Virus record (IMG/VR): IMGVR_UViG_3300006903_000012
Strand: one strand, 5' to 3'
Source: a virus
Length of the DNA stretch: 64,000 nt
A program made the position numbers and the translations under genes. This document shows positions 42,271-58,737 of the stretch, in pieces; position 1 is the first letter of the stretch, and the number at the start of each line of letters is the position of its first letter. The notes below the pieces were generated by a model. That model searched no databases. It was given only the letters and a program-made list of their open reading frames with translations, and was not told where the DNA came from.

Positions 42271-42293
42271 ATCTCAGTTGGATCAATCGGTTG
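42271..42293 (-). CDS. Major capsid protein, predicted micro-exon 3 (QPIDPTE + 2 nt); alternative acceptor gives 42271..42287
   Basis: 23 nt between the G at 42294 (after the I2 P9 hairpin CUAUAUC...GAUAUAG) and the U-G splice site at 42271. It leaves phase 2, which exon 4 completes. Confidence 0.4.
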
Positions 42294-42486: not shown

Positions 42487-42522
42487 AGGGTATTGGGCCG
42501 TAAAATCGGTTGGCGTCACATA
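42487..42522 (-). CDS. Major capsid protein, predicted micro-exon 2 (YVTPTDFTAQYP)
   Basis: 36 nt, phase 0 to phase 0, between the G at 42523 and the U-G splice site at 42487. An alternative frame exists, so confidence is low. Confidence 0.4.
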
Positions 42523-43020: not shown

Positions 43021-43296
43021 AAGGATCACCGGATCCGTCGCCTTTGTCACCAACCCGCCATCCAACCCTTTGGATTTCAAAATATGCTCTGTCATAGACT
43101 TCACGAGCAACGGATCAGCTTCGAAACCCTGGGCATTCAAATTCTTCAAAACTTGTTTCGTAATTTCGTCAGCGCCGTATGGATCATTCAGATTCACACC
43201 AGCGCTTTTTGCAAACAGACGAGCCGCATCATTGGCCGACATACCAGCCACCGGCAACACTTGCGGCACCGTCAACATATTATCAAAAGCATCCAT
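43021..43296 (-). CDS. Major capsid protein, predicted exon 1 (MDAFDNMLTVPQVLPVAG...KATDPVIL)
   Basis: ATG at 43296 lies 20 nt after the scaffold stop. 92 codons run up to the U-G splice site, and the track ORF stop (43015) lies 2 codons into the intron. Confidence 0.6.
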
Positions 43297-43316
43297 GTTA
43301 CAAAAATTCCCTAAAC

Positions 43317-44888
43317 TTAATATCTGGGACCCGACACTGTCGATTGCGCTAATTCAGAAGCGCGAAATTTCTTGATCGGCACCTGATCGCCACTTAACGC
43401 TGGAAATGATAAATCACCAGCTTGTGGAGCTGATTGAGTCGGAGTATCTGGCCGAAGCATTCCCAACGACTTACGCTGGGGACCTTTTCGACTAGATACT
43501 GACTCAACTTCTTTTTCGGTCAAGGCTTTGATTAGCGTTTCTACTTTTGCTTCCAAACCAGCTGTCTGCGACTTGTATCGAGCTTCTACCTGCTCAACCG
43601 CATGTGTTACCGCGGCCTGCACCGTCGCAGTTAAATCTACCTGACTCGGTTCTGTCGTTTGGTTAATAAAATCAACTACTGCTGGCACGAACTCATTCAG
43701 AGACTTCTGCATAAGTTCGCGTTTTTCCAGCCGACTGTAATTACCACTATCTAATGTCTGCAAAAATGAGTCGGACCATTTTTGCAGAAATGCCTCAGCC
43801 GGAGATATGGTTGCGGACTTAACATCGGCATTTGCTTGCGTCCGAACCTTGACATCTGTATCGACTGGCGTTGTTGATTTCTTTTTTGCAGCCTTGACTG
43901 GAGTCGGTGGCTGCATCGCTTGCTTTTTCGCATCATCGGTCGGTTGTTTAGAAAACATTAGCCGACCTTCTTCTGCTTCATCTTCGGGTGTTTCAGCGGC
44001 GTCCACTTCCGGATCTTCCATTGCCTCTTCTTGCTGTTGGTCAATTTGCGGATGTTGATTGATCTGTTCTTCCGGAATAGGGGCTGGATTGCCACCTACT
44101 TTTTGCATCGGTTGGGGCGCTGGATTCATATCAGTTGCCGCTGCTTGACCTTCAGCGGTAATTCCACCGTCTGGAGTTGCAGCTAATGAATGAGCATAAT
44201 CCCGCACAGCACTAACCAAATTAGCAGCATGTGCCAAAAGTTCACCTTTATTTCCCATTCCCGGCGACGCTAGTGCTTTCTGCACTGATTCCAAGGCAAC
44301 TATCGCATCGGCCACTAATTCATCTTCAACATCTGATTTTCTATAAGAAACTTCAGGCGAGGCTTCAACTGACATATCATCCGAATTAGTTTCATCTTCA
44401 GACATCTCAACGTCTTCAGTCCCATCAACTTCAGAATGAGTATGTTGTTTCTTAGCCTTATGTTTCTCAACTTCATCATCTGGTGCTGACTCATGTCCTT
44501 CATCTACATCTTGCTCAGTTTCATCAGTCAACTCATCCGTCGGCTCGTCTTCAGCATCAATGACATCCGGATTCGGCTGCAATTCATCTAAATCTTCACC
44601 ACTATAGTTCTGAGTATCGGCCTGCATCTCTTCTGGCAACACACTCATTGTACCATTAGCTGTTGCTTTACCAACCATCTTGCCACATTCCGGACAATCA
44701 ACATCTTCACTGGAAAACGAAGTCTTGCAGTTCGGGCATTCTCGCATGTGCGACTTTATAACTAATTCTGTTTCCGTATTCGATTTTCCAACTCTCTTTG
44801 ATAAATCTTTCTGAACTAATTTCTGTGCCAGCACCGGATTATTCAAAACGGCCCTAGCGTCGTCTTGCTTTGTTTTAATTTGTCCCAT
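43317..44888 (-). CDS. Scaffolding-like protein (523 aa, acidic, N-terminal CxxC...CxxC ribbon, C-terminal coiled coil)
   Basis: It sits between the protease-containing ORF and the capsid gene. It has strongly Asp/Glu-rich low complexity and CPNCKT...CPECG. Confidence 0.55.
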   Translation of the reverse strand: MGQIKTKQDDARAVLNNPVLAQKLVQKDLSKRVGKSNTETELVIKSHMRECPNCKTSFSSEDVDCPECGKMVGKATANGTMSVLPEEMQADTQNYSGEDLDELQPNPDVIDAEDEPTDELTDETEQDVDEGHESAPDDEVEKHKAKKQHTHSEVDGTEDVEMSEDETNSDDMSVEASPEVSYRKSDVEDELVADAIVALESVQKALASPGMGNKGELLAHAANLVSAVRDYAHSLAATPDGGITAEGQAAATDMNPAPQPMQKVGGNPAPIPEEQINQHPQIDQQQEEAMEDPEVDAAETPEDEAEEGRLMFSKQPTDDAKKQAMQPPTPVKAAKKKSTTPVDTDVKVRTQANADVKSATISPAEAFLQKWSDSFLQTLDSGNYSRLEKRELMQKSLNEFVPAVVDFINQTTEPSQVDLTATVQAAVTHAVEQVEARYKSQTAGLEAKVETLIKALTEKEVESVSSRKGPQRKSLGMLRPDTPTQSAPQAGDLSFPALSGDQVPIKKFRASELAQSTVSGPRY

Positions 44889-44895
44889 CTAACAC

Positions 44896-47800
44896 CTAAG
44901 AAACTGACACTAGTGTTTCGGCCACAACCGGCACTCTGGTAAACGCAAAATGTTCGATCCAGCCCCTCAGAAAATCACGCTGATTACTGGACTTCTTAAT
45001 TACACCATCTGAATCGGGATAAAATCCCATTGAAATTCTAATACAATCTTCATGCGGAATTTTATTTTGAATGTCTGATTTGACTTCTTGATACAACTGC
45101 CGACCTAATGCTGTCGGAAAAAAGATACCCCGTGCTTTTGGTTGCCGACCGTCTATCCAAATGTCAGTTGCGATCCCAGCGCTCAATCGTTCAGTTCCAC
45201 ATTTAGGACATAGATAATCAGTTAACGATTTGAACTCATAACCGCAGTCACAATCATAGAGAGAATAATGCGCGACACTGGCAAACGGCGGCGGAACTGT
45301 TTTTGATTTGAACCGTCGAATGGCTTCTTCATAAAATGCTTTAGTAACTTTATCGCCTTCAATATCTCTATCGAATTTGGTGGTAGTGGCTTCCCACTCC
45401 ATCATCCCATCATCTTTTATGCGAGCTTTTGTAATTCGCCACTCAGTTCGGAAAACATCAGAACTAAAAGAGATGGGAACTAAAGTTTGTGACTTTTTAA
45501 CTTGTGCGTCTGAAAAATCATCTAAGATTTTATCTGCCAGTTTAGAGTTAAGGGCATAATAATTTTTCAAATGTTTTTTAGCTTCCGAAATACTATCTTT
45601 ATCTGAGCTATCTCGAGATAGATGTGACCAAACATCACCAACAATTGCAGTCCCATAACGATCAACAAGTTTCGAAAGCATCTTATTAGAAGCTACATCT
45701 GAGTTATATCTACGTCTGGCATTATTATTTGTTGATCCTGAAAGAGTTGGCGCAACCTTTTGAAAAGCATTCTGATTTCCGGTGCCCTCTCCAACTCCAA
45801 TAACATGCTCACCAGGCAAAGAATTACTATGACCATGTGTACTTTGGTCATGCTTGCCTGGGAGATGTTTCTGTTCACCACCACTCTTCTCTTCTGCATC
45901 TGCTCGCCAAGCATCTAAACATTCATACTCTTTTGGATTCTTATTCGGTTGGAATCCATCTCGTGCCTTCTCAAACGCATCGGCCGCTTGTGAATATTTA
46001 CCAGCGTGATAAGCATTCCACCCTTGCGCAATCCATTTACCTGAATAGTATTTGTAATATTCTGACCAGATAGCTTTCAAGCAGCTTTGATCGGCCTTGG
46101 AAATAAGCGACTTACCTACCTTATCCAAAAGAACATCTTGATAATCGGCAATTTGTTCGCCCAAATTCTCAATGCCTTGCGACAACCTAGTTCTGGCTGT
46201 GGGATCTTTTGTTGAAGACAGATCTTCTTTTGCTCGAGCACGCTGTTGTTGAGCTAAATCGATTCTAGAATGTAACTCGGAAGTAGATAACTTGTTAAGT
46301 ATCTTTTGGTCTCGCTGTCTTTCATCGGCAGTACGGTTTGATAGAACTTTTCTTGTTGTCGGAACCTTCGCCCCGCCTCCTACCTTCTTCTTCGCCGCTG
46401 CAATGCTAGTATCATTATCTTTGGCATATTGTCGAGCCGCCGCATCGCGCAGTTGAGCAGATGTATGCGCAACTTTCCCACTGGCGCCTTTGATGCCAGC
46501 ATGACTCGACTGGTCGTGTTGTCCAGGGAGATGTTTTTCTTCCAATATATGTCGACTTGCCGCTAAATATGCTTTTAGCGACTTAAAATCTGAACCTTTG
46601 CCACGACCATAAATATCAAGTCCTTTTGAACTATGATGCTCCCACTTGCCAGAATCAGCAATATATATAGAATGTTCCAACTGATTACGTCCGTTACCCG
46701 TAGTGGACTCATATAGATCTACACCTCGTATAGGCAACGGATTATATTTAAATCCGTGTTCACTTAGCATCTTAGTAAATTCAGGTGACCGCGGAGTTCT
46801 GGTTCGACCATGACTGCTTTGGTCATGTTTACCCGGCAAATGCTTCTGCTTACTCTCATGTATCTCATTATACTTCTTGTGAACCTCAGGAATTTTATGA
46901 TCTTCTGAACCATCGTCTGCCAGTTGACCGATCTCCCGCAACTCATCTTGATAAAGAAATCGGTGGTAACCTTTTGGAAGTAGTGACTTTGTTTCTTCAT
47001 CAGTCTCGAATTCAATATCATCCAATGCAGAAGTAGCTAATTCGATTACATTCCGCCAAGCATCCCGTTCAGCTGACGTATAGTTATAAATCTTCCTAGG
47101 TTTATCAAGCTCTCTCGACAAGGCAGAAACCGCGGAATTAATGTCATGCTGTGTCTCTGGAGTAAGGTCTTCGATCTCACTGGACTGTCGTAACTGTCTC
47201 AACAAGTCTCGACCAGCACCTCGTCCGGCCCTGGTTCCCGGTCCGAACTTTTTCAGATCAGACAGATGTGACTGACCATAACCAGCATGACTTTGTTGGT
47301 CATGTTTACCCGGCAAGTGTTTCTCAACTGCCGCCACAAACAAACTCTTCTGTAACAAATAATTCTGTCGCGCTTTTTCGACTTCATTATGCGGTTGATA
47401 CTCATGCCCGCATTTTGAGCATTTATGAGTTCCGCGTCCAATATGTGGATCTTCAACTGTACTACCGCATTTAGGACAAGCGGCAGTTGGGAAATGTTTC
47501 TCAGTCATTGATTTCTTGTATTGCTGATTCGAGAAGATATTATCACTTATAAATCGATCCACTTGTAAATTAGCATCATCAAAATCACCACGATCATAAT
47601 CTACACTTTTCCAATCGAAATTATCTCTGTCTCCATTAGAAACAAAAAACTCTGCTAATACAGTTCTGCCAGAATCGGGCAAAGCCGGTATAGTATCAGC
47701 AACATAATTCAACTTAACATCATTTGACATCTGATTTATCCAAACATCAGCTGCTTGTTTTTTTGATTTCGCACGTCCACTGCGTACTAAGTCTGATGTT

Positions 47801-48216
47801 ATTTGTGACTCAAAACTTTTAACAAGTTCCTTTGCTGCACTTGTCACATCGGCATCAGATGCTTTATATGGATCAGGTCTCTTTTGTCTCATCTTCCCGG
47901 CATGTGTTCCTTGATCGTGCTTGCCGGGAAAGTGCTTTTCCGATAACGATTTCTGATTCTGCTTAGCAACAAATGCTAACAATTCATCAGGATCAATTTC
48001 TATTTCTCCGCCACCGAAATTATGTGCGCCAAGATGCGCTTCTGGAATCGATTTCTCGTGCTTGAAATACTCGACTTCAGCCAGACGCTTTGTGGCCCAG
48101 TCTTTACTAGGTCCGCAACCTAGATTTCTTTTTCCGTCTTCACTAACCACACACCACTGATTGCCTTTTTTCTTAATCCGCTTTTCAACCAACTCGCTGA
48201 TTACAAAGTCGGCCAT
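44896..48216 (-). CDS. Modular 1106-aa polyprotein ending in an HK97-type (S78-like) prohead protease domain; five HDQ motifs
   Basis: The C-terminal ~200 aa match my recollection of prohead proteases (FDRDIEGDKVTKAFYEEAI...FASVAHYSL...IRISMGFYPDSDG...HFAFTRVPVVAE). The upstream modules are separated by five KH(F/L)PG(K/Q)HDQxxH(A/G) motifs. Confidence 0.6.
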   Translation of the reverse strand: MADFVISELVEKRIKKKGNQWCVVSEDGKRNLGCGPSKDWATKRLAEVEYFKHEKSIPEAHLGAHNFGGGEIEIDPDELLAFVAKQNQKSLSEKHFPGKHDQGTHAGKMRQKRPDPYKASDADVTSAAKELVKSFESQITSDLVRSGRAKSKKQAADVWINQMSNDVKLNYVADTIPALPDSGRTVLAEFFVSNGDRDNFDWKSVDYDRGDFDDANLQVDRFISDNIFSNQQYKKSMTEKHFPTAACPKCGSTVEDPHIGRGTHKCSKCGHEYQPHNEVEKARQNYLLQKSLFVAAVEKHLPGKHDQQSHAGYGQSHLSDLKKFGPGTRAGRGAGRDLLRQLRQSSEIEDLTPETQHDINSAVSALSRELDKPRKIYNYTSAERDAWRNVIELATSALDDIEFETDEETKSLLPKGYHRFLYQDELREIGQLADDGSEDHKIPEVHKKYNEIHESKQKHLPGKHDQSSHGRTRTPRSPEFTKMLSEHGFKYNPLPIRGVDLYESTTGNGRNQLEHSIYIADSGKWEHHSSKGLDIYGRGKGSDFKSLKAYLAASRHILEEKHLPGQHDQSSHAGIKGASGKVAHTSAQLRDAAARQYAKDNDTSIAAAKKKVGGGAKVPTTRKVLSNRTADERQRDQKILNKLSTSELHSRIDLAQQQRARAKEDLSSTKDPTARTRLSQGIENLGEQIADYQDVLLDKVGKSLISKADQSCLKAIWSEYYKYYSGKWIAQGWNAYHAGKYSQAADAFEKARDGFQPNKNPKEYECLDAWRADAEEKSGGEQKHLPGKHDQSTHGHSNSLPGEHVIGVGEGTGNQNAFQKVAPTLSGSTNNNARRRYNSDVASNKMLSKLVDRYGTAIVGDVWSHLSRDSSDKDSISEAKKHLKNYYALNSKLADKILDDFSDAQVKKSQTLVPISFSSDVFRTEWRITKARIKDDGMMEWEATTTKFDRDIEGDKVTKAFYEEAIRRFKSKTVPPPFASVAHYSLYDCDCGYEFKSLTDYLCPKCGTERLSAGIATDIWIDGRQPKARGIFFPTALGRQLYQEVKSDIQNKIPHEDCIRISMGFYPDSDGVIKKSSNQRDFLRGWIEHFAFTRVPVVAETLVSVS

Positions 48217-51200
48217 GTTTTGTCATCCTCAATTCGTCCTAAAATTTCATAATGTTGCCGACCTACTGGCCGAGCTTGAATTTTTTGCAGCCAATTTTCT
48301 AAGGCTTGATTTGAATTGAACGCCATCACATCTGTTATTTTTGTAACCGGATCGCCAGCGTTATCAACTTCTTCTTTGACACGCACCGTTCGTCCGTCTA
48401 TTTGTAAATTCTTCAGTCGCTTTAATTTCTCAAAATTTCCACGATTGAAGAAATTCAAATCCGGCGGGCGTCCATCATCTGGATCATGTACACCAGAATA
48501 ACCAGTGCCAGTATAGAACGCTTTCTGCTCTAGCTCAGAATATTTAGAATCATATTCATCCATCCACATTCTCAAAGACAGATGATTAATACTATTAACA
48601 TGAACACTTTGATCTGGTAAATCTACATCATCAAAATAAAAATAACCTTTGCCTTTAACAAGTTCTGTTTTCGTCCTGCCCGTAACCTTCAGTGCTCGAT
48701 TAACTTGAGCAACTGTTTTAGGAGTTTTACTGAAATCCATTCCTGATTCTTTTTCCAAATTTCCTGCATGAGTCTTCTGATCGTGTTTGCCAGCTTGGTG
48801 TTTAACTAAAATCTCATACCCATCTTTTTGTAACTGTCGCGCCGCTTGTTTCAACTCACCTTCAACAATAAGACTCTTAACAACTATTGGCAACTCATCA
48901 TCGAAATCATATTTCCCATTATTACTCTTTACGACTGATCGAACTAATGCCGGCATCTCAGGTTTGTAATATTCAAACCCATAATGCAGCACCATGTCTA
49001 AAAAGTCTTCATAGTAACGCTTCAAGTTCTCGTCATTGACCGATTGTAGATCTTCTGTCTTAGCCCGGTCTTTGATAAACTGCTCAAATTCTTTTCGATA
49101 TTGTCCGGGGATTTTTTCAGCATAGCTATCAAATCCCAAAAGTGATTTTTCAGTCTTGGAATTACCAAAAAGATAAAACTCTTTTTCATTTCCCAGATAC
49201 AACCACACCCCAAACACATCCCATGTTACTGCTAATTCTTTCTCAGCCCCCATTGAAGTTAACTGGTTATCTGAAACTGTTACATGGGGTTTATATCCGC
49301 CCGCTTCCCACGTTCGATCTGGTGCCTGCCCATTCGACAACAAACCCGCCACCAAATCATCATGTAGATGTTTTAGGGCGGGTGTGATTTTGACTTCTGC
49401 CACAGACACTTCTTGCAGGGTTATTATAGTGCCGGTCAGGTTGAGTGTCAAGGATTTTTGATCGTATTCAGAACACACTTTTTCGATAGTTTTTCTTATC
49501 GCCAGTGAGTCAAAATACCGATCCATTTTTCCTAAGTAAACTAGTGTGATATGTGGCTCAGACTTTTTGAAATCTAACAGGTTAACTATCTCATTCGGGA
49601 CCGATAGAGCAATCATACAGGTATCATCATGCTCAGCTTTTTCTTCAACTATCTTCGACCCTTTGATTCCCTTAGCTCCAAAAATCTTGGCTCGGCCCGC
49701 TCGGATATCATCTATCGGCAAATCACCTACATCCACCAAAGCCGCTTCAACATACTCATCGGCATCGGTGCCCCATACAATTCCTGCATAAGCATAATTG
49801 CCGCCGAGCACATCTATCTCACTGTCACTAATTACCGGCACCAGACTATATTGTTGTAGATAATGCTGCGCATCGGCTACACTATCAAACCGAGACCGCT
49901 TACCAATTTGATCGGGCTGACCCCATGAATTCATGGGAAGAGATTTTTCTTTAATGGTTGTGCGATATGTTTTGTCGCCTTCTGGATCCTTCCAATCTGA
50001 AACAACCTTAACCTTTGTATTGCCTGGAACACCGAAATACTCAAGTCCACTCAAAGCTGATTTTAGATTCTGATAGGCCCGATCTTCATTATTTCCAGCT
50101 CCCATCTGACCAAAGGCTGAACCGATCCACGGATCACCTCCCTCGGTATCTACTAGAACAAGCCGAACTGCTCGATTAAATGCCGCCTGTGATAACTCGG
50201 CACTATATGCAAGCTCATGGTGACTTGTATCATTCTCAATCTGGCGACCCGCATACCACTTTCCATCTACTTTAATTAATAAAAGATTGAGATGTTTCTT
50301 AATTTCAGACTTTGTCGGGTGCCAGAACTTGTCTCGTTGATAGCTCCCGGGACCAAGCTCTGAGTAATATGACACACTGGGTTTACTAAATTTGTGCTCA
50401 ACCGCAGGTTTACCAATATCTTCTGGCACAGGAGTAGAAGAAAGAGCGCCGGCATGCTTTTTCTGATTATGCTTTCCCGGTTGGTGTTTCTCAACTGCTT
50501 TCTTATTTTCAGCAATAATTCGTTGCGTCTCTTGTTCCAGAATTTCTTTCAGCTTCGCATTCGACTCATCACCGTTCCAATAATGTCCGCCATCTTTCAA
50601 AAAGTCTTCGAATTCTTTTGGGTTCGACTGCAAGTTGCAATGGCAAGTCATGGGATGCGCCGGTGGATGTTGTGTTGTCTCACCGTCGAACACCGTTTCA
50701 TACTCAAAGTCTAAAGGCACAAATCCTTGCTCTTCATTTTGAGTACAAATATCACACACATCGTACCCACGCGTGATCCAACCTTTAGTCTTCAATCCCA
50801 CTGCTGTCATTTGATCTAGAGTCGCCCGAGAATCAGCCCAATTCAATTCCGTATTTACAATTGAACGAATGCGCGACTCACTTAACTTACCAGCATCTTT
50901 CTTAAATTTCAAACCAAAAAGATTCGCCTGGATATAATCGACAATTTCTTCGCTGCTCAAACCATTATCATAACCAGTCAAAATATTTTGCCGAAGGAAA
51001 TATTTTGTTCCACTATCGACATGCTGAACTAATGTGGCTGCTCGTGCATCTAACAGATCAATCACCGACGGATTAGTCAGAATGAACTGAAATTCTTTTG
51101 GTAACGTCAGTCGATCAGCCAAACCCGCTTCAAACATTTGCTGCTGAATATCTTGAACAGCCGTCAGAGAGCCTTCAGAATATGCTTGCCGCAAAATATC

Positions 51201-53270
51201 TAACAACTGATCTTGAATATCAGGCAGACAATACCAATCTTGCTCATTTAGAATATCGTCGAGTTTTTCAGATGCGGTAATTTCCGCTTTTTCTATTAAA
51301 TCAATTTTAGATTTTTCTTCATGGTTAATATTCCATTCCCAGATCTTTCCAGTTTTTGTTTCAGATATGATCTTACCCCCAAGAGCTTCGTTCATTGAAT
51401 TTGGCCGAATATTACCATGCTCAACATAAGCTCTAACAGAGTTAATACCCGACGATGCAAGTAACTTAAATATAGCATTTGCTGTTTCTTTTCCAAATCC
51501 AGAACCAGAACGTGACGAATCTATTCGATTGAAGTAGGCATAATCACGATCATTATTGGGTAACTCTACTGTTGCAGTTACTACTATATCATCTTTAGGA
51601 AGTGCATTTTCTAACCAATTTTCTTTTCTTAACCTATCGTTTATTTTAGCATCAAAGAAGAGCCTGTCGCCGGATTGAGTAACAGTTATGTCTAACCTAT
51701 CTGTGTGAATTTTACTGGGAATATTATCTTTTTTACCATACTCACCAGCATGTGATTCTTGATCGTGCTTGCCGGGGAGGTGTTTTTGTATTTCGTTATC
51801 TAACTCAACCAAACTTTTATACTCTTCAAGCGGCGCAACTAATTCTTCCAAATGCTCAATAGTTAACTGATTACCGACTTGCTTAAAAGACTCTTGCAGT
51901 AATTTGCTAAACTTCTTAACTGTCTCACTTGAGTTTCTTAATTGCTTGCCGTCCGCTAACAAATCTTCCGCCAGCGATTTAGCATATTGTTGCATCTCGC
52001 TGTAAGCACTGTCTATTTGATCGAGAGCTTCAGGTTTGTTAGCATCTTCTTGCAGGCCACCGATCGCTTCAGTATCTTGATCGATAGAATCCAGACTATC
52101 ACTAGGGAAACTATCCATACCTTCAAGCCCCGGAGCCGCTGGTAACCCGCTTGTTTTCACGTCAATAATTTTCCACGCCTCAGCTTGTTTCTGAGCATCA
52201 ATCGGTTTCAAGATCGGTTGATTACCAGTCAAAGTCATTAGCATCGTTGCACGTTTACCAGCCAGATCTGCTTGCACACTCGTCTCGCCGGTCATATCAA
52301 TTTTGAACTTGAACTTGAACCCAGATGCAGTCGACATCAGAATCTTTGTATTAATGAGATCCTCGACTAATTGAGCATAGAAACCAGTGCCCGCTCGCGA
52401 CGATACTTTTGAAGACGCTTCCACACCCGCCAATGTACGATCATGCTCAAAGATTCGCAAATCGCCAATTGACAATCCAAACGCAGCACACACCATTTCA
52501 GCAAAACGTTTGAAATTCTCAATCATATTCACATCAGCCGGCGAAAGAGTTAATGGAATAAATCTCGCCGGCTTTGTGTGATCGTACAACAGTGGCATTT
52601 TCATGGGATCAATGTCATTCCACATTTCGCGGAAACCTGTTGCCCATGCGATTGCTTCTGCTTCAGACATATCCATAACATCCAAAATCCCAGCCATCGG
52701 TGTGTTACCCAATTGCTTGAGATAATAAAGATAGATGCGCGAGAGAGCTTCAATCGATAAAAATGCACTTTCAACTGGCGCTTCTTGAAATACTTTGCGA
52801 GTCAAATCAGTTCGTGGTTGAGTAATCAAACGAATCACATCGCCACGACCAAAATAAACTCGATCTAATCCATTATAGGGATTGATCTGTACAAACGGAA
52901 TGTCGCGATCATAGGTGGGGTATAATGTTTCACCATCAATATGATAGAGACCACCAATGATTCCGTCCATTTCAGGATTCGCCACAACTTCAGCATTTCC
53001 CGCAATGGGGAGAATTAGAGCATCTTGCAGCATGCGCGACAACCATACGTCCCAACCATCACCATCATCTGCATCCGCCAGAACTTTCTCGAGATACATT
53101 TTCATCTCGCCTTGTTCTTCTGGCTTATCACTAACTATTTCCCATTCCAAAGATACAAGTTCGCGCAAGATATGCCGAATACAAAGCTTTGTAATCGGCT
53201 CCGTCGCAACTTGATACTTCCACTGAGCTACCGACAAGCGAGTTGGGTTAGCTAAATAAAGCGGTTGCAA
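48201..53270 (-). CDS. 1689-aa fusion: portal protein + GNAT-like + MuF/SPP1-gp7-like head morphogenesis + repeat module + 2H phosphoesterase (LigT-like) + C-terminal module; the real 5' end is probably not the TTG at 53270
   Basis: The portal-like N-terminal ~470 aa is called from position and size. The GNAT-like string is RSGSGFGKETANAIFKLLASSGINSVRAYV. The MuF-like string is NTELNWADSRATLDQM...GWITRGYDVCDIC...HPMTCHCN. Two HxT motifs are HITLVYLG (about 49553-49525) and HVTV (about 49296-49266). There are three HDQ motifs. Confidence 0.65.
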   Translation of the reverse strand: MQPLYLANPTRLSVAQWKYQVATEPITKLCIRHILRELVSLEWEIVSDKPEEQGEMKMYLEKVLADADDGDGWDVWLSRMLQDALILPIAGNAEVVANPEMDGIIGGLYHIDGETLYPTYDRDIPFVQINPYNGLDRVYFGRGDVIRLITQPRTDLTRKVFQEAPVESAFLSIEALSRIYLYYLKQLGNTPMAGILDVMDMSEAEAIAWATGFREMWNDIDPMKMPLLYDHTKPARFIPLTLSPADVNMIENFKRFAEMVCAAFGLSIGDLRIFEHDRTLAGVEASSKVSSRAGTGFYAQLVEDLINTKILMSTASGFKFKFKIDMTGETSVQADLAGKRATMLMTLTGNQPILKPIDAQKQAEAWKIIDVKTSGLPAAPGLEGMDSFPSDSLDSIDQDTEAIGGLQEDANKPEALDQIDSAYSEMQQYAKSLAEDLLADGKQLRNSSETVKKFSKLLQESFKQVGNQLTIEHLEELVAPLEEYKSLVELDNEIQKHLPGKHDQESHAGEYGKKDNIPSKIHTDRLDITVTQSGDRLFFDAKINDRLRKENWLENALPKDDIVVTATVELPNNDRDYAYFNRIDSSRSGSGFGKETANAIFKLLASSGINSVRAYVEHGNIRPNSMNEALGGKIISETKTGKIWEWNINHEEKSKIDLIEKAEITASEKLDDILNEQDWYCLPDIQDQLLDILRQAYSEGSLTAVQDIQQQMFEAGLADRLTLPKEFQFILTNPSVIDLLDARAATLVQHVDSGTKYFLRQNILTGYDNGLSSEEIVDYIQANLFGLKFKKDAGKLSESRIRSIVNTELNWADSRATLDQMTAVGLKTKGWITRGYDVCDICTQNEEQGFVPLDFEYETVFDGETTQHPPAHPMTCHCNLQSNPKEFEDFLKDGGHYWNGDESNAKLKEILEQETQRIIAENKKAVEKHQPGKHNQKKHAGALSSTPVPEDIGKPAVEHKFSKPSVSYYSELGPGSYQRDKFWHPTKSEIKKHLNLLLIKVDGKWYAGRQIENDTSHHELAYSAELSQAAFNRAVRLVLVDTEGGDPWIGSAFGQMGAGNNEDRAYQNLKSALSGLEYFGVPGNTKVKVVSDWKDPEGDKTYRTTIKEKSLPMNSWGQPDQIGKRSRFDSVADAQHYLQQYSLVPVISDSEIDVLGGNYAYAGIVWGTDADEYVEAALVDVGDLPIDDIRAGRAKIFGAKGIKGSKIVEEKAEHDDTCMIALSVPNEIVNLLDFKKSEPHITLVYLGKMDRYFDSLAIRKTIEKVCSEYDQKSLTLNLTGTIITLQEVSVAEVKITPALKHLHDDLVAGLLSNGQAPDRTWEAGGYKPHVTVSDNQLTSMGAEKELAVTWDVFGVWLYLGNEKEFYLFGNSKTEKSLLGFDSYAEKIPGQYRKEFEQFIKDRAKTEDLQSVNDENLKRYYEDFLDMVLHYGFEYYKPEMPALVRSVVKSNNGKYDFDDELPIVVKSLIVEGELKQAARQLQKDGYEILVKHQAGKHDQKTHAGNLEKESGMDFSKTPKTVAQVNRALKVTGRTKTELVKGKGYFYFDDVDLPDQSVHVNSINHLSLRMWMDEYDSKYSELEQKAFYTGTGYSGVHDPDDGRPPDLNFFNRGNFEKLKRLKNLQIDGRTVRVKEEVDNAGDPVTKITDVMAFNSNQALENWLQKIQARPVGRQHYEILGRIEDDKTWPTL

Positions 53271-53559
53271 TTTGTTACAAAGTCTTACAGACCTTTGAGT
53301 AAGTCATTTCTGCTCACTTCTTGCAATTCCTATTTCTTGCAAGTTCAGACTATATCATTATCTTTCTTCAAGATAGTTCCCACATAGTCGTTACACACTT
53401 CCGCAGATGCGGGTTGGCTCGGTATTTGGACTCTCACCATTCACCGAATTCGAGAACTGTTACAACATCCATTACTGGATGAAGCCGCCAAGTTGACGGG
53501 TTAAGTAGGGGGGCGGTTGCTGTATACTCGTCGGCGCAACCGACTTCTGTACAATAAGT
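53268..53559 (-). mobile_element. Group I intron core (I0) abutting the first codons of the portal ORF; 5' splice site unresolved (the element may include HE 53560..54432)
   Basis: P2 is CAUCCAGUAAUGGAUG (about 53484-53463). The core has UUCUCGAAUUCGGUGAAUGG...AAUACCGAGCCAACC, GUGUAACGACUAUGUGGGAA, P8 UAUCUUGAAGAAAGAUA, and AUGAUAUAGUCUGAAC. P9 is UUGCAAG...AUUGCAAG, followed by two more hairpins. A candidate terminal G is at 53268. Confidence 0.7.
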
Positions 53560-54432
53560 TCATCTGCCATCAATATTTCTCCTGAGAAATAATTTCTCAA
53601 CCCGAGCAACTTGCTCTTTTGTGTTCTTCAAAAGTTTTGTATCCCAAATCACAATAACCTTATACCCTGCATCTTTATATGCTTGAATTCTTTTCTTATC
53701 TCTTGGATTATCTTTCGCATGCCAGTAGACACCAAAAAGCTCAACAATTATTTTCTTATTGGTATTTACAAAATCTGGGTTAAACCTATTTACCCAAAAT
53801 GCACCGTTACCCACATATCTAAAACCAAATCGCTTTAGATATCTCATCAGAAGTTTTTCTGGTTTATTTGGACTTCTAGGTTCTAATCGTTTCTCAATAA
53901 CTGCATCTTTCTCACTATCTGACAAACCATCCCAATATTTTCTGAGTGATTTAGAAAGTTTATCTGACCTGAGTTGCTTAGCTTTCCTTGGTGTACGCAA
54001 CCAAGTTTCGGTAACAGATTGCGAAATCTTTTTAGCTATTTCTTGTTCTTCCTCGGCAGTTCGTCTTTTGTGTACTCGCTTAATCGCTTTCGACAAACTT
54101 TTACGAAATTCAGCATCACGCTCAGGAGTAAAGTTTCTTCTGGCTTCCGCTGATTTCCTACCAATTCGTTGTCTTTCTTCTATCGGTACCTTAGCATGTC
54201 TTTTCTTTTGAATCCTTGAAATTCGAGCACAAACTTCGGCAGAGTATTTATTGCCCTTGTTGGGCGATGGTCGACCCAAATTCTGGACAGACAGCAGAAA
54301 CTTAGTCTCATCACTCATCACTCGACCGTTGTGATGATTGATAAATCGTCTTCCAAAATTCGCTCGTTCACCACATCCACATAGACACAACGGTCCTTTT
54401 TTAGATTTAGACTTTTGTTTTCGGCCTGCCAT
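53560..54432 (-). CDS. Vsr-like homing endonuclease with NUMOD3-like repeats (290 aa), adjacent to or within intron I0
   Basis: The C-terminus RYVGNGAFWVNRFNPDFVNTNKKIIVELFGVYWHAKDN matches the family. The N-terminus has CLCGCG plus repeats of S/T.E.......I....K type (SDETKFLLSVQ, SAEVCARISRIQKK, TPERDAEFRKSLSKAIK, TAEEEQEIAKKISQS). Confidence 0.65.
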   Translation of the reverse strand: MAGRKQKSKSKKGPLCLCGCGERANFGRRFINHHNGRVMSDETKFLLSVQNLGRPSPNKGNKYSAEVCARISRIQKKRHAKVPIEERQRIGRKSAEARRNFTPERDAEFRKSLSKAIKRVHKRRTAEEEQEIAKKISQSVTETWLRTPRKAKQLRSDKLSKSLRKYWDGLSDSEKDAVIEKRLEPRSPNKPEKLLMRYLKRFGFRYVGNGAFWVNRFNPDFVNTNKKIIVELFGVYWHAKDNPRDKKRIQAYKDAGYKVIVIWDTKLLKNTKEQVARVEKLFLRRNIDGR

Positions 54433-54461
54433 AATAGACTAATCTCTTTTCACCAATAAAT

Positions 54462-54914
54462 TTATACCGGCAGAATCGCCACAATTTTTACTCTAAATGT
54501 ATCTTCACTAATTGTCTGAGTCACGGTAAATCTAGTCCGTCGACTAGCACCCCGAAGTGTCAAGGTCGCTGAAGAAGCAAACATCGCAACCCCAGCCACA
54601 TCCCATCGCAATAAAAATTCATCATCAACCTGTGATCGGTGCACTAATTCTTTCGACCAATCTGTATAACTATATGTAATTTCTTCAGGTTCAGAGTCTT
54701 CGACAGAAACACTATGTGATCGAAATAATTTTGTAGTTGAATCGACTAACGCAGAATTTGCAGATCCAGATAAAGCTGCAAATAAGTTAGGATAATTCTT
54801 TCTAACCTGGGCCGCATGTTGACCTAAATCCATCAGCGCTTCATCATAAGCCACTTCACCCGAAAAGACTTTCTCTAAAGCTGCTAACACCGCATCTAAT
54901 TCTTTATTTGCCAT
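54462..54914 (-). CDS. Hypothetical protein (150 aa)
   Basis: Minus ORF in the head module; no motif recognised. Confidence 0.55.
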   Translation of the reverse strand: MANKELDAVLAALEKVFSGEVAYDEALMDLGQHAAQVRKNYPNLFAALSGSANSALVDSTTKLFRSHSVSVEDSEPEEITYSYTDWSKELVHRSQVDDEFLLRWDVAGVAMFASSATLTLRGASRRTRFTVTQTISEDTFRVKIVAILPV

Positions 54915-54943
54915 ATAATATTTTCTCGATTCAATCTATCGTC

Positions 54944-55927
54944 TTATAAATTAGATTTCTCTTTAATAAAAAATGCCGATGCAGGAGGTGTCGGTTCGTC
55001 CGAATATCCTTCCCAATCATCGGGAGTTTTATCACTTAAAAAATTAGTTAGGAATTCTGCACGTTTTGGATATCGTTCAGAAAAATAATCAGGAAGAGTG
55101 TAAAACAATTCAACTGACGTTGCAAAATCTTCTGACAAATTAGTCTTACTTAGATGTGCAGAATGGATTTGTCTAGCGTTTTTCTTCTCACTATTGATTA
55201 CATTTTTCCAAAGCTTAGATCTGCTAAAACTTAAAGAACCCTTACTGGCACCCATTGCAGCGTCCAAATTATGTGCCAACTCGTGAATCGCTGACCGTTC
55301 ATCGGTATAATTCAAAACTGGTGGATGAGAGTCTTGTTCTTCAAGTGGACGACTCACTACGGAAAATGTCCCAGCAATTCCAGTAACAAACCCTTTCTTT
55401 CTAGAAAAAACTCTCTTCCTATATTTAGAAATTTCATTCTTTGCCCAAGACGGAAATCTTCCTAAAGCCTGCTCATAAACCGCTGCATCGTTCTCGTAAG
55501 TCGCAAAATTTCTAACCATCGAACCAGCATGCGTTTTCTGGTCATGCTGGCCGGGCAAATGCTTTCCAATACTTCCACTTGTCTCTTTCCGGCCCACTAA
55601 CATCTTCAATCGCCCCTTCGGCGTCAATAGCAACGTCCGAGTTGTACCACCTGCACTACCATTACTTGTTTCTAACTGCTCAACTAAACCTTGTCGCACT
55701 AATTCGTGAATCTCATTTTTGTGCTGCATCCAATAAACATCTGAAAGTGCGTGACCTTCAGTTTCTATTTTGTAGAGAATTTCAGATTCGAAATTAGATT
55801 GGCCGAGTTGAGATTCGTCGATATTAGACTTTTCAACAGATGCTCGTCTCTTCGGATCATGCAAAGAATGTATCTCAGTAACTAAATCAAGAACATAGTT
55901 CCCATCGCTATCAGTATAAATTTTCAT
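54944..55927 (-). CDS. HExxH (zincin-like) metallopeptidase-motif protein with one HDQ motif (327 aa)
   Basis: Contains GKHLPGQHDQKTHAG (about 55567-55523), then AIHELAHNLD (55291-55262). Confidence 0.5.
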   Translation of the reverse strand: MKIYTDSDGNYVLDLVTEIHSLHDPKRRASVEKSNIDESQLGQSNFESEILYKIETEGHALSDVYWMQHKNEIHELVRQGLVEQLETSNGSAGGTTRTLLLTPKGRLKMLVGRKETSGSIGKHLPGQHDQKTHAGSMVRNFATYENDAAVYEQALGRFPSWAKNEISKYRKRVFSRKKGFVTGIAGTFSVVSRPLEEQDSHPPVLNYTDERSAIHELAHNLDAAMGASKGSLSFSRSKLWKNVINSEKKNARQIHSAHLSKTNLSEDFATSVELFYTLPDYFSERYPKRAEFLTNFLSDKTPDDWEGYSDEPTPPASAFFIKEKSNL

Positions 55928-58737
55928 TGATTAATAACCAAGTCAGCTACAAGTAACGGAGCCTTAAAACTATCTGTCCGAATAGTTGTACTTCTAACTT
56001 CTACTTTACCATTAATAATCGGTACAATCTCATGCTCATCATTGTATCCAAAATTATTAATTTTATAAGAATATAAAATAGATTCTCTAGGGACATTAAC
56101 TATAAACATTAACTTTCCTTCAGAAAAATCATGTGCTACCTCATAAGTATCTGACCAATGACCGACAGTATCTACATCAGCTAATTTTATACTTCCATTA
56201 GCAATTCTTGTAATTAATTCATCAGGAACATCTAAACCTCTATGAAGCACAACAGAGTTCTCTGGTAATGTCAGTTGTGCTGCAGCCCACATCATATCGA
56301 GACCTGGATCATTTTTTCCGGCTGTCCAAGATTTTACTCTAGATGCTAGCTCGTCGGCACTCCCCTTTTTACCATCATAAAATCTTTCTATACTGACAAA
56401 TGCAGATAGTACTGATCTATTATAGGGAGTGTTTAAAATACGATCTTTATCTGAAAAAGTAATTCCCAAATCCTCAAACCTTTTTCTGTCATCATATACA
56501 TAGTTACCCACTTTATATCCCTGCCCCACAGTATTTCTTACTGCTTTAACTCCGCCAGCCTTTTTCACAATACCAATCATTTTTCTGGCACGTTCCAACG
56601 ATTTGTTTTTAGCAATTCCACTTGGTCGCCCATGTGTTAACTGATTGTGTCTACCGGGTAAATGCTTCTTAATCTCTTCTCGCAACTTCTCTTTAGCAAG
56701 ATAATGCTTAACGACTTCATCAAGTCTAGAATCTTGCTCCAATATCTGATCTGTAGTAAAAGATTCTAACTTGCCATATCCATCATCTAATAATAGCTTT
56801 CCCTTATAACCAGCAGACTGTAAACTGGTAGCTAAACTTAAGACATCGCCTTTAGGCGGCAAATCAGATCGAATATCAAAAAGAGACATTCCGGGCTTAA
56901 ATTTCTCAGTTGAATAAATATAAATACCAGCAGATGATAATGCTATCCGCATGGCTATCATTCGACTACTGTCAGTCTGCCGCAACAAGTTTTTAGCCAG
57001 AACAATATGCTCAACTGAAGACCTGCCGGACGGAGCAAAGACCAACCGATCTTCAGTTGGCAAGTATAAACCGACGACACTGGACGAGTCGTCTTCTTCA
57101 GAATTCTCAACCTCTGACAGAACTTTATATGCCTTTGCTAATTCGTTTTTATTGGACGCTACAATATCATCCCCAGCATGAGATTGTTGATCGTGTAACC
57201 CTGCTAAATGTTTTATTTCCTGCACTTCACGGTACACTCGATCACCCGCATCAATTTGATTACGCAGTTTCGCAATTGTGAAAGCATCACGCGATTGGAG
57301 AGCCATCTTTAGTTTATCTTCCAATGAGCGTCGGCGAGATATCCAAGCCTTATGAGCACCAGAAGATGTGCCATATTTTTCAATTAGAGATTTTTCTCCA
57401 ATTGTCGTAGAATAATCGTCTTCTTCATTATTAATATCTTGAATATATACCTTCATTGATTTTGGTAAACCAAAATACTCAAGACCAGATAAAGCCGATT
57501 TTAAATTACGATACGCATCATCACTTCTAGTACTACCTAAATGATCTGAGAGCGAACTGACTACCAACTTTTCATCTGAACCTTTTACAAGCCTAAGACG
57601 AACAGATTTATCGAACTCATCAGAAGAGAGACCAATATCTGCAGCAAGATCGGCATGCATTGAAATTTTATTTTTAGTTCCTTGTATTGCTGGTTTTGCA
57701 TACCATTTCTTACCAACTTTCAGTAACAATAAGTTTGATCTCCAGAAACTATCATTTTGATAACTATCTTTCAACAAATTAGAGTAATAAATTGTCCCAT
57801 CTTTAGATTTATGTTTCTCAGCCAATGATGTAGCAATACTACTACCATCATTACCACCATGAGTTTTCTGATTATGTTTCCCCGGTTGATGCTTCTCAAA
57901 CACTATCGGATTCTCATTCTCATCAAATCCCAGCGCGATTCTAATTTGCTCAGCTAATTCGGCGGCAGCATCTTTCTTTTTCTTATCTTGGTCGGCACTG
58001 ATTATTTCGACAGGGCTAATAGGTTGGGGATATTCAGCAGCAAAATCGGGCAGATACTTGATACTCAATATCGCATCTTGTAATCTTTTGACTGCCAAAG
58101 ATTTGACCGTCGTCGTAACGACTCGGCCTGAATGCAAATCAATTTTAACAGGAGTCTCGGCAGGTATTCCAATTTGATAAAGTTTATCTAGCGCCCAATA
58201 AACTTTCTTAACTCTCGGCTCATCATCAGCTGGACCAACTATTCCTGTGCCTGAGCGATCTATAGTTATTTGACCTTTCTGATATCTAAACCGAATGCTT
58301 GTATCAAACAAATGCCTAATATCCGCATTAGCAGTTATATCAGCGTGAACAGCATCAGAATCCAGTGTTGCATAAACATTGCCGTTAGGAGTAACAATAG
58401 CTGTTACCTTTTCGTTGTCTATTTCATCATCTTGAAGATCTTTTGTAAAATCTGACCAATCATCTACTCGATAGATATTAAATCGTTTAGATCTACCATA
58501 TTTAGTTGCATCATAAATAAGTTCATTAGAACTCGAAATAATATCTTTGCTACTTCCACCCACTTCACCCTTACGACCACTATGTCCAAAGTTTCCAGAA
58601 CCGACGCCACCTTTAACAACAAGATGCCCAACATCTTGGATAATCATTTGTAATCTTTGTCTAGTGTCAAGCATCTTGAAACTCCTAATCGTGCACTGCA
58701 CTTTCCAAAAGAATATCCGAACCGGACTCAGTAACAT
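55924..58737 (-). CDS. Modular 937-aa polyprotein with a C-terminal ADP-ribosyltransferase-like domain; three HDQ motifs and one GSGNFGHSGRKGEVGGS motif
   Basis: The C-terminal ~170 aa carry an R-S-ExE-like triad (VLHRGLD, GHWSDTY, NDEHEIVP). Internal modules repeat. Confidence 0.55.
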   Translation of the reverse strand: MLLSPVRIFFWKVQCTIRSFKMLDTRQRLQMIIQDVGHLVVKGGVGSGNFGHSGRKGEVGGSSKDIISSSNELIYDATKYGRSKRFNIYRVDDWSDFTKDLQDDEIDNEKVTAIVTPNGNVYATLDSDAVHADITANADIRHLFDTSIRFRYQKGQITIDRSGTGIVGPADDEPRVKKVYWALDKLYQIGIPAETPVKIDLHSGRVVTTTVKSLAVKRLQDAILSIKYLPDFAAEYPQPISPVEIISADQDKKKKDAAAELAEQIRIALGFDENENPIVFEKHQPGKHNQKTHGGNDGSSIATSLAEKHKSKDGTIYYSNLLKDSYQNDSFWRSNLLLLKVGKKWYAKPAIQGTKNKISMHADLAADIGLSSDEFDKSVRLRLVKGSDEKLVVSSLSDHLGSTRSDDAYRNLKSALSGLEYFGLPKSMKVYIQDINNEEDDYSTTIGEKSLIEKYGTSSGAHKAWISRRRSLEDKLKMALQSRDAFTIAKLRNQIDAGDRVYREVQEIKHLAGLHDQQSHAGDDIVASNKNELAKAYKVLSEVENSEEDDSSSVVGLYLPTEDRLVFAPSGRSSVEHIVLAKNLLRQTDSSRMIAMRIALSSAGIYIYSTEKFKPGMSLFDIRSDLPPKGDVLSLATSLQSAGYKGKLLLDDGYGKLESFTTDQILEQDSRLDEVVKHYLAKEKLREEIKKHLPGRHNQLTHGRPSGIAKNKSLERARKMIGIVKKAGGVKAVRNTVGQGYKVGNYVYDDRKRFEDLGITFSDKDRILNTPYNRSVLSAFVSIERFYDGKKGSADELASRVKSWTAGKNDPGLDMMWAAAQLTLPENSVVLHRGLDVPDELITRIANGSIKLADVDTVGHWSDTYEVAHDFSEGKLMFIVNVPRESILYSYKINNFGYNDEHEIVPIINGKVEVRSTTIRTDSFKAPLLVADLVINQ

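Follow-up and report, generated by a model that had tools for sequence, protein, structure and literature searches.

A short His-rich peptide motif was found to head the modules of multi-domain proteins coded in the head-gene region of the viral DNA analysed here, a stretch of 64,000 nucleotides (the window). The motif is real, is under selection at the peptide level, is widespread, and always precedes a domain. It is confined to genes that lie between portal and protease and code for effector-type domains, and it behaves as an N-terminal header of the module, exchangeable between fused and standalone forms. Comparative sequence data favour a role as a cargo tag or in processing. By analogy with the capsid-targeting sequence of T4 and gp21, on which we modelled the mechanism proposed below, the motif may well be a capsid-loading and processing signal that frees cargo from portal, MuF or protease anchors.

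The first-pass annotation had listed twelve copies of the motif, and all twelve were recovered within a few bases of the positions it gave. They match KH.[PA]G.H[DN]Q..H, are distributed over four adjacent head-module genes, and all lie on the minus strand, in frame with the ORFs. Coordinates below are those of the core, from K through the last H.

57859..57894, minus strand: copy 1, A937 aa 282-293, KHQPGKHNQKTH
57178..57213, minus strand: copy 2, A937 aa 509-520, KHLAGLHDQQSH
56632..56667, minus strand: copy 3, A937 aa 691-702, KHLPGRHNQLTH
55529..55564, minus strand: copy 4, B327 aa 122-133, KHLPGQHDQKTH, with a 121-aa N-domain before it and the zincin domain after it
51750..51785, minus strand: copy 5, E1689 aa 496-507, directly C-terminal to the portal domain
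50454..50489, minus strand: copy 6, E1689 aa 928-939, directly C-terminal to the MuF domain
48768..48803, minus strand: copy 7, E1689 aa 1490-1501, between the 2H phosphoesterase and phrog_9154 modules
47902..47937, minus strand: copy 8, F1106 aa 94-105
47287..47322, minus strand: copy 9, F1106 aa 299-310
46810..46845, minus strand: copy 10, F1106 aa 458-469
46501..46536, minus strand: copy 11, F1106 aa 561-572
45835..45870, minus strand: copy 12, F1106 aa 783-794, header of the last module, with the protease-like domain

As a degenerate DNA pattern, the motif had 12 matches in the window, against 0.00 expected from 100 dinucleotide-preserving shuffles. A six-frame profile scan of the window also gave 12 matches, at 27 to 37 bits, the next best scoring 2.8 bits; with scores so clearly bimodal, no degenerate extra copy was detected there. 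The same scan found no motif in the scaffold-like protein G523 nor in the rest of the window, including the exons of the major capsid protein (MCP). The 12 copies use the synonymous codons of K, H, G, D and Q in free mixture, which indicates that the motif is kept at the amino-acid level and does not stem from recent DNA duplication. Constraint at the nucleotide level was considered, the last His being always coded by CAT, and was rejected since CAT usage is 77% in this genome and other loci are unbiased. Likeness between the copies is limited to the motif itself, about 13 to 16 residues, except in the sole truly homologous module pair of the window, formed by module 2 of A937 (aa 282-508) and the E1689 module that follows copy 6 (aa 928-1110).

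The genes and domains concerned are the following.

55924..58737, minus strand: A937, a cargo polyprotein of four modules, without Pfam or PHROG match
54944..55927, minus strand: B327, an N-domain, the motif, then a zincin metallopeptidase
55040-55291, minus strand: zincin of B327 (aa 213-296), Peptidase_M90 with HELAH
53326..53505, minus strand: group I intron core, within the 5' end of the portal gene
48201..53303, minus strand: E1689, probably exon 2 of the portal polyprotein
52266-53228, minus strand: portal domain of E1689 (aa 15-335)
50622-51269, minus strand: MuF domain of E1689 (aa 668-883)
49266-49571, minus strand: 2H phosphoesterase of E1689 (aa 1234-1335)
48534-48716, minus strand: phrog_9154 domain of E1689 (aa 1519-1579)
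44896..48216, minus strand: F1106, five short motif-headed modules, then a C-terminal protease-like domain
44899-45630, minus strand: protease-like domain of F1106 (about aa 863-1106), which carries a Zn-ribbon insert
43317..44888, minus strand: G523, an acidic, Zn-ribbon and coiled-coil protein without the motif

Gene order in the window is cargo, portal, protease-like domain, scaffold-like protein and MCP. Four modules were counted in A937 and six in F1106, while E1689 carries the portal, MuF, 2H and phrog_9154 domains. The description of these products as head-module polyproteins held, with portal, MuF and 2H phosphoesterase domains found in E1689 and a zincin in B327; that of four giant proteins did not, as B327 has only 327 aa. 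The TTG at which the 1689-aa ORF starts is probably not a real start, and the ORF is probably exon 2 of an intron-split portal gene, whose putative exon 1 starts at an ATG near 53571. The major capsid gene is also split, by several group I introns.

Other domain calls were less secure. For the prohead protease that had been placed at the end of F1106, neither Pfam nor PHROGs gave a match, and the call stands on gene order and on one homologue, the protease-scaffold fusion P0002, which is located between portal and MCP. The motifs SVxHY and R[IV]S[MI]xF are common to P0002 and the protease-like domain of F1106, and G523 matches the scaffold-like tail of P0002. Alignment of the F1106 C-terminus with the HK97 gp4 set by hhalign was collinear and non-significant (E=0.035), a relationship to XkdF was rejected because no similarity was found, and AlphaFold2 modelled the last F1106 module with a pLDDT of 41, too low to be of use. 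The GNAT domain proposed in E1689 came down to one weak Pfam match (FR47, E=0.16), profiles giving nothing else. Neither Pfam nor PHROGs nor a local ART profile of 93 members supported the ART module assigned to the A937 C-terminus; an R/S/ExE-like pattern is visible there by eye only.

A logo of 632 non-redundant instances placed all the information content of the motif between positions -3 and +17. The consensus, of about 20 residues, reads hydrophobic-x-K-H-L-[PA]-G-[QKR]-H-[DN]-Q-x-[TS]-H-[GA]; after it comes a stretch that is Gly/Arg/Ser-rich or reads [NS]-W-A. Eight residues are near-invariant across hundreds of divergent proteins; H, H, D/N, Q and H are invariant, with G at a fixed spacing. 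Positions -3 to -1 correspond to hydrophobic-x-K, with K in 91% of instances; Ser or Thr occupies position +9 in 67%, and S position +8 in about 25%. No Pfam or NCBIfam model was found to cover the motif; when Pfam, NCBIfam and PHROG were compared, the only family including it was PHROG 2859, of unknown function. A full-text literature search for motif strings and notation gave nothing relevant, the study of polyvalent proteins does not mention a conserved inter-domain punctuation motif (PMC5512222), and the MuF-toxin paper reports no junction motif (Jamet et al. 2017). The motif is most likely a previously undescribed tag for loading proteins into the capsid and releasing them from their carrier.

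Beyond the window, a DNA-pattern scan detected the motif in at least 118 viral-contig stretches, and a profile search against 1.84 billion representative proteins gave 629 motif proteins (E<=1e-3), in which the motif occurs up to 10 times per protein. Genomes with the motif usually have several copies. Among 185,579 species genomes, 48 matches were obtained, of which only about 4 contigs were true, all of them MAGs; nearly all of the 48 were chance out-of-frame hits in GC-rich genomes, about 17 chance matches being expected by our own estimate from 36 bits over 596 Gb. GenBank phages gave no nucleotide or protein match to the region, F1106, E1689 or a 28-aa consensus peptide, and no cultured carrier was found among them. 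Matches of a protein from locus L021 to unrelated cultured phages were discarded, as they concerned a different domain and those phages lack the motif. Word-indexed homology searches returned one match for the motif profile, one for the F1106 C-terminus, and for B327 only itself. No relatives of F1106 were found in viral contigs, and metagenome contigs gave only a 29-residue N-terminal match (aa 10-38). L172, whose genes are the nearest relatives of the window's protease, portal and capsid genes, is devoid of any motif.

Position along the protein was examined in 137 motif proteins. The motif had been said to fall always between domains; this holds in the window, where it lies at module boundaries, and fails elsewhere, where it is very often at the extreme N-terminus. 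In 60 of the 137 proteins the motif is N-terminal, with its first copy within 30 aa of the start; in the others it is internal, as are all 12 copies of the window. Only 4 proteins had a last copy closer than 100 aa to the C-terminus, and the median spacing was 252 aa. Of 94 clusters of homologous modules, 44 contain the module in both forms, headed at the N-terminus and internal. Loci L019 and L021 have the same leader and motif before different bodies.

Domains headed by the motif include ADP-ribosyltransferases, zeta toxins, zincins, 2H phosphoesterases and nucleases. A Pfam census of 119 motif proteins yielded ADPrib_exo_Tox (18), MuF (15), DUF3626 (10) and Zeta_toxin (5), together with DRAT, ART-PolyVal, ddrB-ParB, SprT, NUDIX, HNH and portal. 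The first-pass remark on HDQ strings in MuF-like proteins proved correct: the motif is just C-terminal to MuF in 24 of 26 motif-bearing MuF ORFs. It also follows the portal in E1689, the architecture being anchor, motif, cargo; in L066, MuF-HNH is followed by the motif and then by an ART. Gene neighbourhoods were consistent: where an XkdF-type protease is present (42 loci), 69 of 75 motif genes are upstream of it and share its strand, and the opposite strand has no motif gene. L021 contains eight consecutive motif-headed genes, then the XkdF protease, then the major capsid protein.

If the motif is a loading and processing signal, it would be a short linear header placed before each effector domain to be loaded into the capsid and delivered to the host. 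Strings of cargo would have three kinds of carrier in the window: the portal in E1689, the prohead protease in F1106, and free polyproteins in the case of A937 and B327. The header would be recognised inside the procapsid during prohead assembly, most likely by the prohead protease; the chain would be cut at or beside it, a candidate site being after the conserved K; and modules freed from portal, MuF or protease anchors would exit through the tail with the DNA. Encapsidation, cleavage and the recognising partner are what we infer here. The portal being fixed in the capsid, cargo fused to it could be ejected only if released. The hydrophobic-x-K before the motif matches the F-N-K|S context of the known HK97 gp5 maturation site, where cleavage occurs at K103|S104. 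Finally, the domains of the census are the repertoire of virion-delivered polyvalent proteins (PMC5512222).

Several points count against such a role. With 15 residues and three invariant His, the motif is far longer than known prohead-protease sites, and if cleavage occurs after K, its conserved part lies on the prime side. The T4 prohead-protease site is L/I-x-E. Absence from G523 and the MCP exons indicates that the motif is not a general maturation site. It accompanies at least three head-assembly lineages (XkdF type, HK97 gp4/gp5 type and that of the window), which makes a single lineage-specific receptor unlikely. Two further points against it are that L172 lacks the motif and that AlphaFold2 yielded neither a docked nor a folded conformation.

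It is possible, though on the unlikely side, that the header is an autonomous cassette tag independent of capsid lineage, whose metal-dependent self-association and/or self-processing alone would bring whichever domain follows into a procapsid and free it for injection. If true, this would explain both the spread across unrelated head-assembly systems and the use of the header up to 10 times per chain.

More doubtful is a metal-bridged tether, in which the three His and the Asp/Asn of the header would bind Zn2+ or another metal, headers would join each other or a partner of the capsid interior, and anchored polyproteins would recruit headed cargo uncleaved. The fixed spacing of the invariant H, H, D/N, Q, H and G is in its favour, as are portability over at least three unrelated head-assembly lineages, which suits a self-sufficient element, the usual presence of several copies per genome, and the occurrence of the motif in both anchored and free proteins of the window. 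However, AlphaFold2 predicted a coil (pLDDT 57), with no ligand cluster and no folded or docked conformation. The ligand-type pattern, H-x4-H-D-x3-H without Cys or HExxH, matches no metal site that we can name, and the motif has neither the ligand pattern nor the compact predicted fold of the zincin HExxH or zinc ribbon/knuckle motifs. Moreover, effectors fused to the portal would remain tethered and could not be ejected.

We think it unlikely that a cargo-borne zincin (MPTase), rather than the prohead protease, recognises the motif. The motif-headed B327 would then cleave the polyproteins, either within the capsid or once injected. It is a Peptidase_M90 zincin with HELAH, zincins of the SprT-like, ATLF and M90 types are found repeatedly in motif-headed modules, and Iyer et al. 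proposed a role for MPTase domains in the processing of polyvalent proteins (PMC5512222). Nevertheless, a recognisable zincin was present in only about 5 of the 119 motif proteins.

We also give little credit to a signal acting after assembly, for ejection threading via the portal/tail channel or for a host-side factor or protease. The motif is always N-terminal to a domain, with a flexible Gly-rich linker after it, and is independent of capsid lineage; yet no partner is identifiable, we know of no precedent for a header signal of this kind, and release of portal-fused modules would be left unexplained. Self-cleavage at the motif, autocatalytic or metal-assisted, on the model of Ni-assisted (S/T)-x-H hydrolysis or N-to-O acyl-shift sites, appears improbable. 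His, Asp and the frequent Ser/Thr at +9 do cluster within 12 residues, and the motif works with any capsid lineage; but the (S/T)-x-H register fits only the quarter or so of copies with S at +8, there is no folded domain around the motif, and no self-cleaving element as small is known to us. That the motif is a linker conserved merely as a recombination point, without biochemical role, is very improbable: modules do shuffle at it, as the common leader of L019 and L021 before differing bodies illustrates, but 8 residues stay near-invariant across hundreds of divergent proteins, and codons are not conserved, so that it is not a DNA recombination site. Ribosome skipping of the 2A type was judged unlikely, as the motif also heads standalone proteins and we know of no bacterial precedent.

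To our knowledge, the way in which phages load toxins, anti-defence enzymes and other effectors into capsids and release them from MuF or portal anchors is understood mainly in T4 and P1. A conserved 20-residue header would make cargo packaging directly testable, provide a sequence handle for packaged effectors in metagenomes, including modules without known fold, give prohead-protease or zincin processing assays a defined substrate, and offer a candidate tag with which foreign proteins might be loaded into phage capsids, if it proves portable. It would also mean that portal, MuF and protease genes can carry strings of exchangeable cargo cassettes.

In T4, gp21 removes the N-terminal capsid-targeting sequences (CTS) that the internal proteins and the ADP-ribosyltransferase Alt carry, and the CTS is portable to foreign cargo and tied to prohead-protease processing (PMC9026906). 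The CTS of IPI-III and Alt, like the motif, is a short peptide before otherwise unrelated proteins, including an ADP-ribosyltransferase. It has about 10 residues ending in L/I-x-E, whereas the motif has about 20, is His-rich, is preceded by hydrophobic-x-K and shows no sequence similarity to it; the logo contains neither the gp21 site L/I-x-E nor any Glu site. Unlike the CTS, the motif is also internal, up to 10 times per chain, and occurs in several capsid lineages.

The VENN peptide of CdiA and the DPxGL peptide of Rhs proteins resemble the motif in standing between a constant carrier and exchangeable toxin modules. DPxGL is also a cleavage site. Both are unrelated to the motif in sequence and delivery route, and the motif is found instead before every module and before standalone proteins. 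In phiKZ and SPN3US, whose head proteins have propeptides and S/A/G-x-E sites, many packaged ejection proteins are reported to be processed by one prohead protease (PMC10052503, PMC7411985); these sites are three residues ending in Glu, without a long His-rich element.

MuF polymorphic toxins (Jamet et al. 2017) and SPP1 gp7 have a MuF trafficking domain followed by a variable toxin, and this layout was found in E1689, with MuF at aa 668-883, the motif at 928 and then the 2H-bearing module. MuF toxins are mostly in temperate phages, whereas true copies of the motif were found in only about 4 contigs of the 185,579 species genomes, all of them MAGs. Phage polyvalent proteins, like those of the window, are multi-domain effectors coded in virion gene neighbourhoods, and their domains include MuF, portal, ART, zincin/MPTase, 2H, ddrB-ParB and zeta-toxin (PMC5512222). 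Polyvalent proteins have 2 to 15 effector-type domains per chain, a range into which E1689, A937 and F1106 fall, and the proteins of the window and other motif proteins share with them a late-gene location and the domain repertoire. They differ from the polyvalent proteins described there in that a single peptide heads every module.

The pattern KH.[PA]G.H[DN]Q..H occurs 12 times in the window (GC 40.6%), always in frame in four genes of a minus-strand row that reads A937, B327, C150, D290, E1689, F1106, G523 (letter plus length in aa):

58737-55924, minus strand: A937, motif at aa 282, 509 and 691
55927-54944, minus strand: B327, motif at aa 122
between C150 and E1689, minus strand: D290, a homing-endonuclease gene
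53270-48201, minus strand: E1689 as annotated (TTG start), motif at aa 496, 928 and 1490
48216-44896, minus strand: F1106, motif at aa 94, 299, 458, 561 and 783
44888-43317, minus strand: G523

All 12 copies listed by the first-pass annotation in four head-module proteins were recovered, while 0.00 were expected for the back-translated DNA pattern (100 shuffles of the window). With a motif profile run on the six frames, the copies scored 27-37 bits and everything else at most 2.8 bits. Codons of invariant residues are mixed among copies (AAA/AAG 7/5, CAA/CAG 6/6), so the repeat is maintained as a peptide. Beyond the motif the copies are not similar to one another, except that the A937 module at aa 282-508 and the E1689 module starting at aa 928 are homologous. 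A domain of about 180 aa is repeated in this pair (window 56668-58737 and 48804-50489, minus strand; 43% identity between A937 aa 282-508 and E1689 aa 928-1110), with the pattern ...W...LLL[LI]KV.GKWYA...AY.NLKSALSGLEYFG.P... and neither a Pfam nor a PHROG match; modules 1 and 3 of A937 resemble remoter copies of it.

The domains of E1689 were placed as follows.

aa 15-335: portal domain
aa 668-883: MuF/head-morphogenesis domain
aa 1234-1335: 2H phosphoesterase
aa 1519-1579: phrog_9154 module

Its three motifs lie C-terminal to the portal, MuF and 2H modules, one after each, which agrees with the boundaries, and with the portal, MuF and 2H domains, first proposed. The ART domain announced at the A937 C-terminus was found neither by Pfam or PHROGs nor by a local 93-member ART profile, and A937 gave zero profile matches. 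B327 consists of an N-domain, the motif and a Peptidase_M90 zincin with HELAH, and F1106 of five short modules followed by a C-terminal region.

A logo built on 632 non-redundant instances carries information from positions -3 to +17 only, the flanks being empty: a hydrophobic residue at -3, K (91%), then H-L-[PA]-G-[QKR]-H-[D82%/N15%]-Q-x-[TS]-H-[GA], then a G/R/S-rich or [NS]WA stretch. For a 42-residue segment, with the 12 paralogues supplied as the alignment, AlphaFold2 predicted coil (pLDDT 57), a result compatible with a linear motif though not decisive. Of 137 proteins, 60 have their first motif no more than 30 residues from the N-terminus, and only 4 have their last one less than 100 residues from the C-terminus, which assigns the motif to the domain downstream of it. 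Median spacing between motifs is 252 aa, and the closest are 48 aa apart. Of 94 clusters of homologous modules, 44 show the same module both with an N-terminal header and inside a longer chain. Two related IMG/VR contigs, L019 and L021, have an identical N-terminal leader and header (RFGYDSDKGLSLVLEKHLAG.HDQ...) with different modules behind, which suggests module swapping right after the header.

At least 118 stretches of IMG/VR matched in an exact-pattern scan, many of them multi-copy (among the matches listed, 10 copies in L021 and 6 each in L001, L019 and L045). When 1.84 billion representative proteins were searched with a profile built from the 12 window copies, 629 matched at E<=1e-3, of which 153 also passed E<=1e-10, with up to 10 copies per chain (e.g. 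P0004, 3023 aa); as single-copy proteins mostly fall below threshold, 629 is a lower bound. In a collection of 185,579 genomes of bacterial and archaeal species the pattern matched 48 times, but only about 4 of these matches were real, all on MAG contigs; the others were out-of-frame chance matches. No match was found in GenBank phages. The motif is thus mainly one of phages that are uncultured and apparently non-integrated, a possible reason why it had escaped description: full-text literature searches for it found nothing. The possibility, raised at first pass, that it belongs to a characterised domain was not borne out, since no Pfam or NCBIfam model spans it and only PHROG 2859, of unknown function, includes it.

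The database scan proposed earlier did find the motif with portal, MuF, protease and toxin domains. A census of motif-bearing proteins gave ADPrib_exo_Tox 18, Phage_Mu_F 15, DUF3626 10, Zeta_toxin 5 and DRAT 3, together with ART-PolyVal, ddrB-ParB, SprT-like, NUDIX, DUF7178, HNH, GNAT, topoisomerase I, portal and XkdF protease. In L021, eight genes in a row each open with the header, and their products include two ARTs, a zeta toxin, a SprT-like zincin and DUF3626; after them come an XkdF protease and then the major capsid protein (MCP). An XkdF-type protease is encoded at 42 loci, with 75 motif genes in all: 69 are upstream of the protease on the same strand, 4 within the protease ORF, 2 downstream and 0 on the opposite strand. 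MuF is present in 56 of 118 loci among the matches listed, and the motif is C-terminal to it in 24 of 26 motif-carrying MuF ORFs (median distance 109 aa); one ORF, in L066, reads MuF-HNH, motif, ART. Within loci L001-L118, phrog_14859 ('RNA ligase') and phrog_1530 ('DNA methyltransferase') outscore protease PHROGs on the L021 XkdF protease domain; these labels were probably inherited from polyvalent fusion proteins and are wrong for the protease.

The claim that F1106 ends in a prohead protease was not confirmed by profiles. Its C-terminal region matches nothing in Pfam or PHROG, and AlphaFold2 gave no usable model of the last module (pLDDT 41). The only database homologue, P0002 (501 aa), has SVxHY and R[IV]S[MI]xF in common with it and is encoded between portal and MCP on contig L172. 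A profile of both aligned collinearly with HK97 gp4 relatives across the expected His and Ser blocks, not significantly (E=0.035). From gene position and these shared blocks, a prohead protease is likely. An XkdF-like protease was rejected, there being no similarity to XkdF. P0002 (L172 4855-6360) runs on past its protease-like domain into a scaffold-like Zn-ribbon and coiled-coil tail resembling G523; in the window (43317-45630) the two parts are split between the F1106 C-terminus and the separate gene G523. The portal, protease-scaffold and capsid genes of L172, the nearest relative, are homologous to the window's, yet L172 has neither motif nor cargo polyproteins, so that the window's headed modules are additions on the portal C-terminus and the putative protease N-terminus.

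Head genes of the window are also interrupted. Four group I introns reached Rfam's gathering score, and capsid exons were located with the intact 398-aa MCP of L172 as tblastn query.

53560-54432, minus strand: endonuclease ORF
53326-53505, minus strand: group I intron core, 5' part of portal gene (Rfam, 54.7 bits)
near 43015-43296, minus strand: probable N-terminal MCP exon
42850-43031, minus strand: group I intron, MCP region
42305-42496, minus strand: group I intron, MCP region
41290-42126, minus strand: endonuclease ORF
41260-40976, minus strand: MCP exon
40239-40946, minus strand: endonuclease ORF
39692-39447, minus strand: MCP exon
38449-39303, minus strand: endonuclease ORF
37864-37637, minus strand: MCP exon
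36813-37616, minus strand: endonuclease ORF
36702-36940, minus strand: group I intron, MCP region
36662-36573, minus strand: MCP exon

The MCP gene appears to be split into at least five exons, from about 43.3 to 36.6 kb (36570-43300, minus strand), interleaved with endonuclease ORFs. Of the five such ORFs in or beside head genes, four are paralogous and of NUMOD3/Vsr-DUF559 type (common ...Y.FVGNG...GR..PDF...) and one is of HNH type; this mobile-element load is unusually dense. In the portal gene (window 53303-53575, minus strand), a stop at 53306-53304 closes the 1689-aa frame, homology to the portal of an intact relative sets in at 53297, and further upstream a short exon (MADELIVQKSVAPTSIQQPPPY...) opens at an ATG near 53571, overlapping the D290 stop. 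Together with the intron core, this makes the TTG start annotated at 53270 probably wrong.

We are rather confident that, in many uncultured phages, the motif is a conserved header of cargo or effector modules within the head-morphogenesis module. What the header does is a more tentative matter. Effectors fused to MuF, or to the portal, which stays at the vertex, would reach the host only once released, and the header alone is conserved at every junction, which points to processing. Where a headed protein stands alone and the header lies 5-60 residues from its start, no cutting is needed, which points to recognition or loading. One signal may serve both loading and removal, as in the T4 capsid-targeting sequence (CTS). 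HK97 gp5 is cleaved during maturation at F-N-K|S, and the hydrophobic-x-K before the invariant His has the form of that site. Since the CTS unites targeting and removal, and given this match, we favour, with less than even confidence, a signal for both loading and processing that the prohead protease would read. Against it, the motif is to our knowledge far longer than all known prohead-protease sites, neither the scaffold-like protein nor the capsid exons have it, and it is carried by several assembly lineages (XkdF protease with phrog_1005-type capsid, 18 loci; HK97 gp4/gp5-type, 5 loci; the window's own). These three points leave room for four alternatives. The header might be a metal-bridged tether, which we consider unlikely, or, with still lower probability, the cleavage site of a B327-type zincin; an ejection or host-side signal is more doubtful again. 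That it is a self-cleavage element seems the least probable of the four.

Compared with known systems, the loading-plus-processing header would resemble in role the T4 CTS, which brings Alt and the internal proteins to the prohead core and which the prohead protease gp21 cuts off (PMC9026906), although it is not a CTS by sequence or by site. A similar likeness in role may be drawn with the pre-toxin junction. The domain repertoire of motif-bearing proteins is that of phage polyvalent proteins (PMC5512222), among which the window proteins qualify, as they do in part among MuF toxins. What is new here is a previously unreported, widespread and repeated header motif.
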